Sequence record: OR424387.1
Reading direction: 5' to 3' (one strand)
Source of the DNA: Escherichia phage HEMP4
Length of the DNA: 39,891 bases
A model generated the notes under the pieces. It saw only the letters and a list, made by a program, of their open reading frames with translations, made no database searches and was not told where the DNA came from. Made by a program: the position numbers and the translations under genes. Below, piece by piece: positions 6,174 to 10,324 of the stretch (its first letter is position 1; every line of letters begins with the position of its first letter).

Positions 6174-6326
6174 TCAGCCCTCCCATATCTCGTTATCGTT
6201 GGCCACATCGCGAGCTTCTTTGCTGACGAAAGCCCACTTAATACCTTCCTGTAAGGTGCGGAACTTCCAGCTCATGAATCCGCATGCAGTAACGCAGTAC
6301 CAACCGTTGATGATTTTCCACTGCAT
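6174..6326 (-). CDS. Small hypothetical protein (50 aa), first gene of leftward operon
   Basis: Hand-translated MQWKIINGWYCVTACGFMSWKFRTLQEGIKWAFVSKEARDVANDNEIWEG; GAGG SD upstream; below ORF-track length cutoff. Confidence 0.3.
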   Translation of the reverse strand: MQWKIINGWYCVTACGFMSWKFRTLQEGIKWAFVSKEARDVANDNEIWEG

Positions 6327-7218: not shown

Positions 7219-7449
7219 ATGAGCGATAACGGACATTTCGATTTCAAAAAGCACTGGCTTGCACTTACTCCGGATGAGCGTGAAGCCTTCGCACAGGAAG
7301 CCGGAACGACGAGTCACTATATACAGACTCACTTAACAGGTAAGCGCAAAATGCCAGGTAAGGTATTGATGAATGGGCTTTTTAAAGCCTGTAAAACAAG
7401 ACAATGGCTGCGCTCAAAAGCAGAACTGGCATACTTCTTCTACTCATGA
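7219..7449 (+). CDS. Cro-like / YdaS-type HTH regulator
   Basis: 76 aa, divergent from repressor; LTPDEREAFAQEAGTTSHYIQTHL HTH-like segment. Confidence 0.6.
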   Translation: MSDNGHFDFKKHWLALTPDEREAFAQEAGTTSHYIQTHLTGKRKMPGKVLMNGLFKACKTRQWLRSKAELAYFFYS

Positions 7450-7472
7450 TATCCAGCCACAACCCTCTGTAG

Positions 7473-7494
7473 ACCGCCACCCGGCGGTCTTTTC
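7473..7494 (+). terminator. Rho-independent terminator after cro-like gene
   Basis: GACCGCC-accc-GGCGGTC followed by TTTT. Confidence 0.65.
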
Positions 7495-7597
7495 ATATCT
7501 ATTCGTACCTCAAAGGTAATAAAAAACCAAATCTGGTTGATCAAATTTTCCAATTGTGCAAAATAGCCAATATCAATAACAAAAAGGGGCGGAAAAA

Positions 7598-7810
7598 TTG
7601 AAGATAGTAACCAGAATGGAGGCCGCAAAAGCCGGGTTAAATCGCTATTTCACAGGAAAGCGGTGCCGTCACGGCCATCTCTCTGAAAGGTATGTTCTGA
7701 ACGGAACATGTGTTGAATGTGCAATGAATAGCGCCAACCGCTATCGTAATGAATTTGCTTGTGCACTAAAGAGTGCAAGAGGGGAAACCTATGGCAAGCA
7801 GCTGGATTAA
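7598..7810 (+). CDS. Small Cys/His-rich protein, possible zinc-binding regulator
   Basis: 70 aa, TTG start with AGGGGCGG upstream; CRHGH...CVEC motif; function not recognised. Confidence 0.4.
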   Translation: MKIVTRMEAAKAGLNRYFTGKRCRHGHLSERYVLNGTCVECAMNSANRYRNEFACALKSARGETYGKQLD

Positions 7811-8621
7811 GGTTGAAGTTATCACTCCTGATAAACCTGAAATTTTTCAGATAGCAGAAATTCTGGGTATTGATCCAGATGCTGTTCTTGGAAAGCTGGT
7901 TCGTATATGGGCATGGGCTGACCAGCAAACAATAGACGGTAACGCTGGCAGCGTTACAAAAGGAGTACTTGATAGACTCGCTTTTATTACAGGATTTGCT
8001 GACGCCCTCATTAGCGTCGGATGGCTTGCTTATCATGACGGCAAACTAATTCTTCCAAACTTTGAGCGACACAATGGAGAATCATCGAAAAAACGTGCAC
8101 TTACGAATAGAAGAGTGGCAGAGCATCGAAAACGAGTAACGCAAAAAGTAACGCCAACAGCGTTACAAAAGGAGTTACCAGAGGAAGAGGAAGAGGAAGA
8201 TATATATAAAACCCCACACATAGCGCACGTGCGCGAGGGTGCTCCGACCAGTGAAGCGAACAGTACGCCGTTGCAGGTGGCAGAACCTGAATTTCTGGAT
8301 GGCCTGAGTGAACCCATCGGGAAATTTCCGATGACAGATGGCTGGCTACCGTCGCCAGATTTTCGGCGGCGTGCTGCGCTGTGGGGAACGGCCCTGCCGG
8401 AACCGGAATTTACACCTGCTGAACTTGCTGCATTCCGGGATTACTGGATGGCTGAGGGCAAAGTGTTCACGCAGGTTCAGTGGGAACAAAAATTCGCCAG
8501 GCACGTAAATCATATCAGGGGAAAATCAAAAAATGCCGGGAAAAGCGATGAGCTTGACTGGAATAACACTGACTGGATAGAAGGGGTGTGGGATGAAATC
8601 AACTCCAGAACTTCTCAATGA
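7791..8621 (+). CDS. Replication initiation protein (O-like position, DnaT-like C-terminal region)
   Basis: ATG at 7791 with AAGAGGGG SD; occupies O position upstream of P-like gene; contains iteron-like DNA repeats; C-terminal AELAAFRDYWMAEGKVFTQVQWEQKFARHV resembles DnaT-like domain. Confidence 0.55.
   Translation: MASSWIKVEVITPDKPEIFQIAEILGIDPDAVLGKLVRIWAWADQQTIDGNAGSVTKGVLDRLAFITGFADALISVGWLAYHDGKLILPNFERHNGESSKKRALTNRRVAEHRKRVTQKVTPTALQKELPEEEEEEDIYKTPHIAHVREGAPTSEANSTPLQVAEPEFLDGLSEPIGKFPMTDGWLPSPDFRRRAALWGTALPEPEFTPAELAAFRDYWMAEGKVFTQVQWEQKFARHVNHIRGKSKNAGKSDELDWNNTDWIEGVWDEINSRTSQ
7939..7966. repeat. Iteron-like element 1 (GTAACGCTGGCAGCGTTACAAAAGGAGT)
   Basis: 28-bp sequence with internal inverted repeat AACGCTG/CAGCGTT; repeated at 8148..8175 in a different reading frame. 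Confidence 0.5.
8148..8175. repeat. Iteron-like element 2 (GTAACGCCAACAGCGTTACAAAAGGAGT), followed by (GAGGAA)x3 and AT-rich tract
   Basis: Near-identical to 7939..7966; extra AGTAACGC half-site at 8135..8142; (gaggaa)3 at 8181..8198 then tatatataaaa. Confidence 0.5.
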
Positions 8622-9369
8622 GTACGATCGCTTACGTGAGCATGGTGTTGCTGTGCATGAAGAGCGGCGTGACAGCAATGGCAAAAAGGAGCAGGTTGCT
8701 AGAATTTTCAATGAACTATTTGTCCAGTTACAGGCTGCATTTCCTGCAAGCGTTTCGACCATAAGGGAGCAGAACAAACTTAATGAATTCCGTAAGCAAT
8801 GGATGCTTGCGTTTCTGGAGAATGGGATCACTACAATGGAACAGGTTAACGCTGGTATGCGCCACGCCCGCGCCAGTGAATCTCCGTTCTGGCCGTCGCC
8901 AGGGCAATTCATCAAGTGGTGCAAAGACAGCAAGATGGTTCTTGGCGTCACCATTGACGATGTGATGGCGGAGTTTCACCGGTACAGCAAGGAAAAAAGT
9001 TTATATCCTGGTGGTCCCGAAAGATTCCCGTGGCGACATCCGGTTATGTACTGGGTCGTATGTGATACCCGCCGTGCAATGTATCAGCGCCAGCTTAGCG
9101 AGATTGAGGTTGAGAAACACGCGCGCAGGCTGCTCGATGATTGGGCGAAAAAGGTGGCTTCCGGACAGCAGATACCCGATCCGGTGATCAGCATACAGGC
9201 AAAGCCAGAACCCATGAGTACGCCTCCTGACACTGGGAGAGACGTTTACCATCCACCAGGGCGAAGTTTCGGGTGCATGCCTAACGCCGCCACCCTGGGG
9301 GGAATAACACCGGCGCAGTGGCTGATAGAGGAATACAGGCGGGGAAAGGCGGCAGGATTTATCAAGTAA
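8593..9369 (+). CDS. Replication protein P-like helicase loader
   Basis: 258 aa; NGITTMEQVNAGMR...PSPGQFIKWC closely resembles conserved core of lambda P. Confidence 0.8.
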   Translation: MKSTPELLNEYDRLREHGVAVHEERRDSNGKKEQVARIFNELFVQLQAAFPASVSTIREQNKLNEFRKQWMLAFLENGITTMEQVNAGMRHARASESPFWPSPGQFIKWCKDSKMVLGVTIDDVMAEFHRYSKEKSLYPGGPERFPWRHPVMYWVVCDTRRAMYQRQLSEIEVEKHARRLLDDWAKKVASGQQIPDPVISIQAKPEPMSTPPDTGRDVYHPPGRSFGCMPNAATLGGITPAQWLIEEYRRGKAAGFIK

Positions 9370-9486: not shown

Positions 9487-9831
9487 ATGAGAAAACAGAT
9501 ACAGGCTCTTGGTCGACTCAAAACAGGCCAAATGAACAAAACAGAATCTGCGTATTGCCAGCACCTTGAGCTGCGTAAACGTGCAGGAGAAATCGTCTGG
9601 TATCGATTTGAGGGTATCAAGCTGCGGTTAGCTGACAACACGTTCTATACGCCCGATTTTGCTGTGATGCTCGCCACCGGCGAGATGGAACTGCACGAAG
9701 TGAAAGGTTTCTGGACCGACGACGCCAGGGTGAAAACCAAAGTCGCCGCAGATCAGTATCCGTTCCGAATCATCGGGGTAACGGTTAAACCAAAGAAAGC
9801 AGGTGGTGGCTGGAACATCGAAGAGTTCTGA
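9487..9831 (+). CDS. DUF1064-like phage protein (PD-(D/E)XK-like fold)
   Basis: 114 aa; YTPDFAV...ELHEVKG pattern typical of DUF1064 proteins found beside replication genes. Confidence 0.6.
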   Translation: MRKQIQALGRLKTGQMNKTESAYCQHLELRKRAGEIVWYRFEGIKLRLADNTFYTPDFAVMLATGEMELHEVKGFWTDDARVKTKVAADQYPFRIIGVTVKPKKAGGGWNIEEF

Positions 9832-9892
9832 AGCGACGATCTTTTTAGTTATCAATGTAATCAATAAGTTATGTGGATAAGCGAGGGTAAAG

Positions 9893-10324
9893 ATGGAAAG
9901 TAATATCAAAGGGTTAGTTGCCGCCGGGCATGAGATGGCTTCGGAACTGAAAGCAGAATGTGGTGCCGTTGATATGCGCAGTGTGGCAAAGCTGATCAGC
10001 GATTTGGCAACGCAACTGGAAGTGCAACTGGTGCGTGCTAATGCGCTGGCGGCGGAGAATGAGCTGGCTCGTAAGGCAGTTCAGGCATTCTGCGATGTTG
10101 TTGGCGACAACACCGAGGTTATCGCTGAGGTGGTTGGGCGAGATGGCGTTCTGGTTATTTTGGAGGCCATGAAGGCAACAGGAAATATGCCAGCCACCGA
10201 TGCTTTTCTGGCTGAAGTACGGGCGCAGGGGGTGGAGATGTTTGCGGAGTGTGCATACACACTTGAACATCATGATCACGCAGTAGCCTTCGCCGCTGAG
10301 CTTCGCAAAGGAGGCAACCAGTGA
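9893..10324 (+). CDS. Hypothetical protein (143 aa), Ea22-region-like
   Basis: ORF with GAGGG SD; alanine-rich helical protein. Confidence 0.45.
   Translation: MESNIKGLVAAGHEMASELKAECGAVDMRSVAKLISDLATQLEVQLVRANALAAENELARKAVQAFCDVVGDNTEVIAEVVGRDGVLVILEAMKATGNMPATDAFLAEVRAQGVEMFAECAYTLEHHDHAVAFAAELRKGGNQ

Follow-up and report, generated by a model that had tools for sequence, protein, structure and literature searches.

A candidate origin of replication inside the initiator gene of Escherichia phage HEMP4 and its counterparts in a widespread initiator family

In this study, we ask where DNA replication might begin in Escherichia phage HEMP4 (OR424387.1), whose sequence of 39,891 nucleotides, here called the window, carries two near-identical repeats inside the gene for its replication initiator. 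This gene lies at 7791..8621 on the plus strand and encodes a protein of 276 aa (PHROG 2509, Pfam PF17948, AlphaFold2 model). A preliminary description of the window had proposed that the repeats mark a candidate origin within an O-like replication gene. From sequence comparisons, and by analogy with phage lambda, we consider it likely that the segment 7939-8212 is the origin of replication of the phage, embedded in lambda-like fashion in the gene of its own initiator, and very probably the repeats are the sites at which the initiator would bind within its own gene to start DNA copying. The proposal is supported by frozen synonymous sites, by a change of reading frame between clades, by covariation of the sites, by their transfer as part of a module and by a lambda P homologue encoded downstream, and activity as an origin is attributed to the segment by analogy. 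The elements exist, are selected as DNA, co-evolve between two clusters and travel with the N-terminal domain (N-domain) of the initiator.

The two copies of the 28-nt repeat are located at 7939-7966 and 8148-8175, 209 bp apart, and are 89% identical, in agreement with the preliminary description of two near-identical 28-bp elements with an internal inverted repeat; the three differences between them all lie inside a 5-nt spacer. Each copy opens with a 19-bp dyad, GTAACGC-N5-GCGTTAC, which, with up to two mismatches allowed, has only two matches in the 39.9 kb (7939-7957 and 8148-8166), where 0.12 are expected and where one of 100 shuffled sequences reached two. Cluster 1 (7939..7957) consists of the dyad GTAACGC-TGGCA-GCGTTAC, with a forward half-site at 7939-7945 and a reverse half-site at 7951-7957. 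Cluster 2 (8136..8178) contains four half-sites in a convergent arrangement (-> -> <- <-) with exact 12-bp phasing, namely a perfect forward GTAACGC at 8136-8142, which had already been picked out as an extra half-site, a forward half-site at 8148-8154 and a reverse half-site at 8160-8166, which together form the central dyad (8148-8166), and a degenerate reverse half-site at 8172-8178 (GAGTTAC, matching at 6/7 positions). Counted as GTAACGC or GCGTTAC, the 7-mer occurs 16 times in the window compared with 3.6 expected, a count that none of the shuffled sequences reached, and five of the 16 are packed into 228 bp of the candidate origin. Eleven copies lie outside the origin region, for example at 6289, 10767, 25117 and 25213 (the last two 96 bp apart), and could reflect codon usage or secondary initiator sites. 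The 9-nt 3' extension of the repeat (AAAAGGAGT) is unconstrained at site 1 among relatives, and therefore the real unit is the 7-bp half-site and not the 28-bp element. Nor does the term iteron-like extend to a tandem iteron block, as the sites form two separated clusters of convergent half-sites.

Comparison across related phages, a check that had been suggested at the outset, showed that the repeats are conserved as DNA in hundreds of related genes. When the gene is aligned with its counterparts in Enterobacter phage BUCT554 (85% identical) and Klebsiella phage ST11-OXA245phi3.2 (79%), normal third-position drift is seen across its length, with the exception of GACGGTAACGCTGGCAGCGTTACAAA, the arms of site 2 and GTTACCAGAGGAAGAGGAAGAGGAAGA, where identity is unbroken; the spacer of site 2 is different in all three phages. 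Synonymous variation was measured in 45 distinct genes of the window clade, drawn from IMG/VR and GenBank and with pairwise identities of 71-100%. The normalized synonymous codon entropy was 0.016 in 18 codons of the half-sites and of the purine tract that follows them, compared with 0.619 in 87 other conserved codons (Mann-Whitney p = 4e-10, a value to be taken as indicative only). In these 45 genes, the third codon positions of cluster 1 are invariant, the codons TTA CCA GAG GAA GAG GAA GAG GAA show essentially zero synonymous variation, and site 2 has invariant arms but spacer codons so variable that even the encoded amino acids differ. Among 64 distinct homologues, the dyad of cluster 1 is found at the same gene position in nearly all, and both dyads are perfect in 55, the others having variants with one mismatch. 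As had been noted from the window alone, the two copies are read in different frames, cluster 1 encoding a loop of the N-domain, GNAGSVT, and site 2 being read as VTPTALQ. The frame of site 2 moreover differs between clades, being 0 in the window clade (nt 358 of the gene, VTxxALQ) and 1 in a Rac-like clade (nt 368 or 380, GNAxSVT). Because synonymous sites are frozen, site 2 is read in different frames and half-sites change in concert, the half-sites and the purine tract are, on this comparative evidence, under selection as DNA itself, and the earlier suggestion that conservation acts at the DNA rather than the protein level is borne out.

The concerted change became apparent in more distant homologues (39-60% protein identity), whose DNA was taken from the contigs encoding them and from GenBank. 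These have the same architecture with different half-sites, and within a gene one half-site is common to both clusters. It is GTTGCGC/GCGCAAC in the Planctomycetales contig L089, with one forward and three reverse copies per cluster, GTAGACG/CGTCTAC in locus L093 and in Ralstonia phage Raharianne, GTTGCGG/CCGCAAC in L091, GTCACG/CGTGAC in L095, L103 and several IMG/VR loci, GTGACGC with GCGTAAC/CGTCAC in L090, and GTCCGC/GCGGAC in epsilon15, phiPSA1, Carin1, RPZH6 and L094. The best 7-mer common to both cluster regions occurs 4-10 times (median 5) in 163 of 179 distinct genes, while in control region pairs from the same 179 genes a shared 7-mer occurs 0-3 times and never more often. The grammar of the arrays was counted in 187 distinct genes with a 6-nt core of the half-site. 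Forward half-sites (F) always come before reverse ones (R), the counts being 119 for FR, 96 for FRR, 52 for FFR, 18 for FRRR and 14 for FFRR; forward-reverse and forward-forward spacings are 12 bp, reverse-reverse spacings are 11, 12, 22 or 23 bp, and the distance from dyad to dyad is 181-245 bp, with modes at 207 and 209. Such asymmetric arrays with identical half-sites in two clusters would be expected of a shared DNA-binding protein and not of independent hairpins. We also observed that the residue following the invariant R108 of the initiator (V109 in the window, codon 8115-8117, in a basic helix) tracks the half-site class among loci L089-L095, L103-L127 and L260-L265, being V with GTAACG, K with GTCACG and GTCCGC, Q with GTAGAC and M with GTTGCG; as a phylogeny-confounded lead, residue 109 is a possible determinant of specificity.

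Cluster 2 is followed by a homopurine tract of 21 nt on the coding strand (8180..8200), which contains (GAGGAA)x3 at 8181-8198, just as first described, and which encodes an acidic linker, EEEEEE. The end of this tract and a short AT tract, ATATATATAAAA (8200-8211), make up a candidate DNA unwinding element at 8190..8212. No duplex in the gene or in 7400-8800 is less stable than the 20-bp window that starts at 8190-8193 (-19.4 kcal/mol compared with a mean of -26.7, sd 2.6), which ranks in the top ~1% of the whole window, and the least stable 20-30 bp of the gene start at 8182-8193. In the family, the longest stretch of purines past cluster 2 measures 22 nt in the median and usually reads CCAGAG(AAGAG)n, a tract that is recognizable as nucleotides even between genes with <40% protein identity, and the 20 nt past the run average 63% AT, compared with 49% for the gene. 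Just past the AT tract lies a perfect 12-bp palindrome, GCGCACGTGCGC (8223..8234), which may be part of the origin. An inverted repeat (arms >=6, loop <=10) is present within 70 nt after the purine tract in 52/133 family genes and in 18/133 at a downstream control position, an about three-fold enrichment that is a lead only, as the sequences are non-independent and one control overlapped cluster 1. Palindromes made of a C-run and a G-run were seen past the purine tract in several family members. No DnaA box is present within 7400-8800; the sole perfect DnaA box in the window, TTATCCACA at 9872-9880 on the minus strand, lies ~1.7 kb downstream of the candidate origin, in the gap between a DUF1064 gene (9487-9831) and the next open reading frame (ORF; 9893-10324).

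The initiator itself appears to have a putative DNA-binding N-domain (aa 1-~118) that is joined through a disordered linker (aa ~119-140) to a DnaT-like C-terminal domain (C-domain). Over its full length it matches phrog_2509, 'replication initiation protein' (PHROGs, E 9e-130). The sole Pfam match is to DnaT (PF17948, aa 179-249, E 1.6e-18), encoded by 8325..8537 on the plus strand. In phage vB_EcoP_ZX5 (Escherichia phage, Uetakevirus), which is 99.8% identical to window positions 7500-8700 (phage TL-2011b is 97.8% identical), the gene is annotated as 'primosomal protein I'. We rejected the assignment as a true DnaT (primosomal protein I) equivalog, which calls for a full-length NCBIfam match above the cut-off: the DnaT equivalog model NF002770 gives 92.4 bits, where 201 are required, and its match is confined to aa 171-252. 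Because this NCBIfam score of 92 bits is below 201, the label 'primosomal protein I' overstates the match. In MW722083, MW205203 and other records, that label or 'DnaT-like ssDNA-binding domain-containing protein' was seen to stem from the match of the C-terminal domain only. An AlphaFold2 model of aa 1-140, built from an alignment of 27 sequences (pLDDT 71), predicts helices at aa 16-25 and 29-46, a loop at aa 47-56 that is encoded by site 1, further helices at aa 57-64 and 69-76, a beta-hairpin at aa 80-87, a long basic helix at aa 96-119 and disorder over aa 119-140, which are encoded by cluster 2 and the purine tract. A fold search with the N-domain model returned weak, generic winged-helix matches only, and no relatives of the N-domain were found by sequence among solved structures. 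Cluster 2 with the purine and AT tracts (8136-8212) encodes aa 116-141, the disordered stretch by which the N-domain is linked to the DnaT-like domain.

The arrangement mirrors that of lambda, as the preliminary description had recognized, with the same order of parts and a P homologue downstream, and the comparison with relatives supports this. The lambda origin (ori), in the middle of gene O, is made up of iterons and, after them, an AT-rich tract. An imperfect inverted repeat of 19 bp is the minimal iteron unit, and for unwinding two iterons with the AT tract suffice (PMC7466680). In the lambda record, ACAAAAGAAAAAAGAAAAGATTATT comes after the four iterons and shows a purine bias on the coding strand. 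Like lambda ori, the candidate origin is contained in the initiator gene, where the DNA-binding half meets the partner-binding half, and its repeated sites are 19 bp long, have dyad symmetry and precede a purine-biased AT tract of low stability on the coding strand, here a short one. As in lambda, the downstream gene (8593..9369, plus strand), which overlaps the end of the initiator gene, encodes a lambda-P-like helicase loader (PF06992, E 1.7e-55) with 39% identity to lambda P over 201 aa (E 2e-49). The extreme C-terminal tail of the initiator, LDWNNTDWIEGV, is like that of lambda O, LDLTNTDWIYGV; when the two proteins are compared by BLASTP, aa 213-266 alone align (8427-8588, E 0.003). The resemblance extends over the ends ...ELDWNNTDWIEGV of the initiator and ...KLDLTNTDWIYGV of lambda O, and this tail could be the contact for the P-like loader. 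However, the N-domain shows no detectable homology to lambda O: there is no PF04492 hit, BLASTP does not align the N-domain, and hhalign with the family profile gives a probability of 0.2. Membership in the lambda O family by way of the N-domain was therefore rejected, and the designation O-like holds for the role of the protein and for its extreme C-terminal tail but not for its DNA-binding domain. Also unlike lambda, with its four contiguous iterons, the sites fall into two clusters separated by 209 bp, of which one is within the region coding for the DNA-binding domain; the unit is a 7-bp half-site in convergent arrays with 12-bp phasing, and a GA-rich homopurine repeat leads into an AT tract that is much shorter than that of lambda.

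By analogy with lambda, we infer that the N-domain is the part of the initiator that binds and that binding is followed by looping, melting and helicase recruitment. The N-domain would bind the half-site GTAACGC, with dimers on the 19-bp dyads and further subunits on flanking half-sites 12 bp apart, and the two clusters would probably be joined in one nucleoprotein complex resembling the lambda O-some. This complex would strain and open the adjoining least-stable segment, that is the homopurine (GAGGAA)3 tract with ATATATATAAAA, and the DnaT-like C-domain together with the lambda-O-like tail would then recruit the lambda-P-like loader with host DnaB.

Several points weigh against this proposal. 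The AT tract measures ~12-20 bp, that of lambda ~40 bp, and GC content at the tract is 40-50% when averaged over 40-bp windows, which are hence not AT-rich; of the AT-rich stretch originally described, the least stable duplex of the gene is left, but the extended AT-richness shrinks to ATATATATAAAA. The sequences that were compared are interrelated and the site codons were picked after inspection, so that the p-values are no more than indicative, although the contrast in synonymous entropy is still very large. In the epsilon15 subfamily, cluster 1 is missing and only cluster 2 is evident; therefore a loop between two clusters is not essential in general, and the core seems to be cluster 2 together with the tract behind it, cluster 1 being an apparent accessory. 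Finally, we found no paper showing binding or origin activity for any member of the family. Nor did we find a published description of this origin or family when searching for oriJ, ydaU, DnaT-like initiators and iterons, with the proviso that literature coverage was incomplete and an earlier description is possible; the origin is not discussed in the ZX5 genome paper, and the curated epsilon15 record has repressor and integration host factor (IHF) sites annotated near the homologue, and no origin. What the window carries would be a new architectural variant of a known arrangement, the origin in the initiator gene, in an uncharacterized but widespread initiator family. A broader proposal, towards which we lean by a little, is that this family carries a previously undescribed two-part origin in its own gene, in which convergent arrays of 7-bp half-sites in clusters ~200 bp apart are looped beside a homopurine tract for melting and loading, in which at least six half-site classes represent orthogonal initiator-origin pairs, and in which the DNA element dictates a peptide motif that occurs twice.

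The only constant partner of the half-sites is the N-domain of the gene that contains them. The genes upstream of family members vary (Zn-ribbon ORF, YdaT, KilAC, Rha or methylase), as do the C-terminal domains, and the downstream partner is a P-like loader, a DnaC/IstB-like loader or a DnaB helicase. Homology to the window ends just past the AT tract, at 8215 in BUCT554 and at 8200 in ST11-OXA245phi3.2, and an Actinobacillus phage has homology to the C-terminal part only (8202-8520). Since homology blocks break at 8200-8215, the N-domain and the sites, as far as sequence can tell, travel as one exchangeable module, like the N-terminal half of O and ori in lambdoid phages. In ST11-OXA245phi3.2 (L003, 2501-3271) and in pE16EC1016-8 (L098, 4001-4771), the N-domain and both clusters are kept with a different C-terminal part; no DnaT domain was seen in the translations of these two genes and no annotated helicase-loader gene follows them, the next gene in L003 being a DUF1064 gene.

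The half-site arrays might alternatively be autoregulatory operators or roadblocks bound by the initiator, which control transcription of the replication operon or the supply of initiator, with the origin lying elsewhere. There is precedent for this in iteron plasmids, where Rep dimers repress their own gene through inverted repeats. Dyad symmetry is typical of dimer-bound operators, a dimer bound at cluster 1, 150 nt into the gene, could block transcription, and the covariation of half-sites would fit any role in initiator binding. However, cluster 2 is always fused to a purine tract conserved as nucleotides and to an AT segment of low stability, which a simple operator would not need, there is no other dyad in the window to serve as origin, and the position at a domain junction beside a module boundary matches that of lambda ori. 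We therefore regard an exclusive operator role as unlikely, bearing in mind that operator and origin roles can coexist.

A second explanation, which we consider improbable, concerns the module boundary: the purine tract and its surroundings could be mainly a recombination linker, providing microhomology for swapping the N-domain with C-domains and loaders and having no role in replication. This would be consistent with phage homology blocks that begin and end at 8200-8215 and with the sharing of CCAGAG(AAGAG)n, as nucleotides, by very divergent genes that have different downstream partners. It accounts for the tract, however, and not for the half-site arrays, their phasing or their covariation, and it is compatible with an origin role, as at the domain junction of lambda O.

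It is very improbable that the palindromes act as hairpins, controlling mRNA stability or translation or serving as antisense terminators, instead of as protein-binding DNA. Each dyad could form a stem of 7-8 bp, dyad symmetry is preserved through the changes across lineages, and a terminator scan flags both dyads on the minus strand, where TTTTTG follows site 2; this T-run is absent at site 1 and unconserved at site 2, and we judged the minus-strand terminator calls to be mechanical. Independent hairpins would not need to keep one 7-mer in both clusters of a gene through at least six sequence classes, the extra half-sites are direct repeats, asymmetric arrays (FRR, FFR and FRRR) leave half-sites unpaired, and the arm sequences are invariant in genes that are 71-100% identical, without compensatory drift. 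A search of Rfam gave no family match. The least probable explanation, that the repeat is a duplicated peptide motif (GNAxSVT) required by the protein and the DNA identity a by-product of protein conservation and codon bias, finds some support in the Rac-like, ctnlZ23 and CBW lineages, which encode G/S-N-A-x-S-V-T at both sites in the same frame, but is contradicted because the frame of site 2 changes between clades, with the dyad intact in the window clade where it is read as VTPTALQ, and it also fits poorly with third codon positions that are fixed despite a four- to six-fold choice, with a peptide that in other classes shifts together with the half-site (L089, for instance, has CAPSAT twice) and with the model, which places the residues encoded by site 1 in a loop and those encoded by site 2 in the disordered linker.

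An origin inside the gene for its own initiator has parallels beyond lambda. In P22 gene 18 and in Bacillus phage SPP1, whose oriL lies in gene 38, origins are situated inside the initiator or organizer gene, and the initiators bind repeated boxes in their own coding sequence beside an AT-rich segment, the SPP1 boxes being in separated groups; the protein families and repeat sequences differ from those of the window. Iteron plasmid replicons have winged-helix initiators (RepA, RepE and pi), and they resemble the system described here in having a short repeated site, direct and inverted repeats of one sequence, co-evolution of initiator and site and, possibly, a winged-helix initiator. We rejected classification as an iteron plasmid replicon, as the 7-bp half-sites form convergent arrays inside the gene and not tandem repeats of ~17-22 bp outside rep, and the initiator has no Rep-family Pfam hit. 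The four GAGGC pentamers in site II of the SV40 core origin are arranged as two convergent pairs, with an AT tract and a palindrome as flanks, and in architecture only the candidate origin is similar, with its -> -> <- <- half-sites, an AT-rich element to one side and an inverted repeat close by. SV40 is, however, a eukaryotic virus whose initiator is itself the helicase, and there is no relationship in sequence or protein. The C-domain of the initiator matches the DNA-binding domain of E. coli DnaT (PF17948); in contrast to DnaT, the N-terminal 140 residues are unrelated and the context is an initiator-loader module and not a restart primosome.

Upstream of the initiator gene, a divergent repressor gene and a small Cro/CII-like gene give the usual lambdoid early-right layout. 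A strong terminator-like hairpin on the plus strand (7471-7490, AGACCGCC-ACCC-GGCGGTCT, then TTTCATATCT) lies between the Cro/CII-like gene (76 aa, 7219-7449) and the replication genes, a placement that recalls lambda tR1, and 3' of it the stretch 7500-7600, with 25-33% GC, is the most AT-rich intergenic part of the region. The ORF directly upstream of the initiator gene (70 aa, 7598-7810, plus strand) has CxxH...CxxC motifs, belongs to phrog_1081 (function unknown) and ends 20 nt inside the initiator gene. A phrog_1081 gene is found in the same position in BUCT554, ST11-OXA245phi3.2 and pE16EC1016-8, but not in Rac-like or more distant members of the family.

The initiator family is encoded by >580 IMG/VR stretches. 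Phages that infect Xanthomonas, Ralstonia, Pseudomonas, Vibrio and Salmonella (epsilon15) have members of it, as do Planctomycetes contigs, and of 5,426 complete E. coli genomes 121 contain most of the 425-bp module. Only two PLSDB records carry this initiator, from Pusillimonas sp. T7-7 (L097, NC_015459.1) and E. coli (pE16EC1016-8, CP088505.1). Both are circular, 41-52 kb in size, phage-like and non-mobilizable, and genes for CII, NinB, Rha or a Mu transposase lie in the vicinity; instead of true plasmids they may represent episomal or excised prophages, and this plasmid collection gave no independent evidence for plasmid-type replication. Among GenBank records named 'Rac', only MN652886 carries the N-domain. 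In Rac-SA53, ydaU matches by its C-terminal part only, and therefore it cannot be assumed that oriJ of the K-12 Rac prophage is the same element.

Taken as a whole, our findings extend the lambda paradigm conceptually and overturn nothing; an origin of this kind will not surprise the specialist, but the case is clean, general and directly testable. It illustrates clearly how a cis-element shapes the protein sequence encoded by the DNA in which it lies. For a family that has been labelled only 'primosomal protein I', 'DnaT-like' or 'hypothetical', and that takes in the type phage epsilon15 and many phages of E. coli and of plant pathogens, a probable origin and a grammar of binding sites can now be proposed, and the covarying half-site classes would supply specificity variants for studies of initiator-DNA recognition and for orthogonal replicons.

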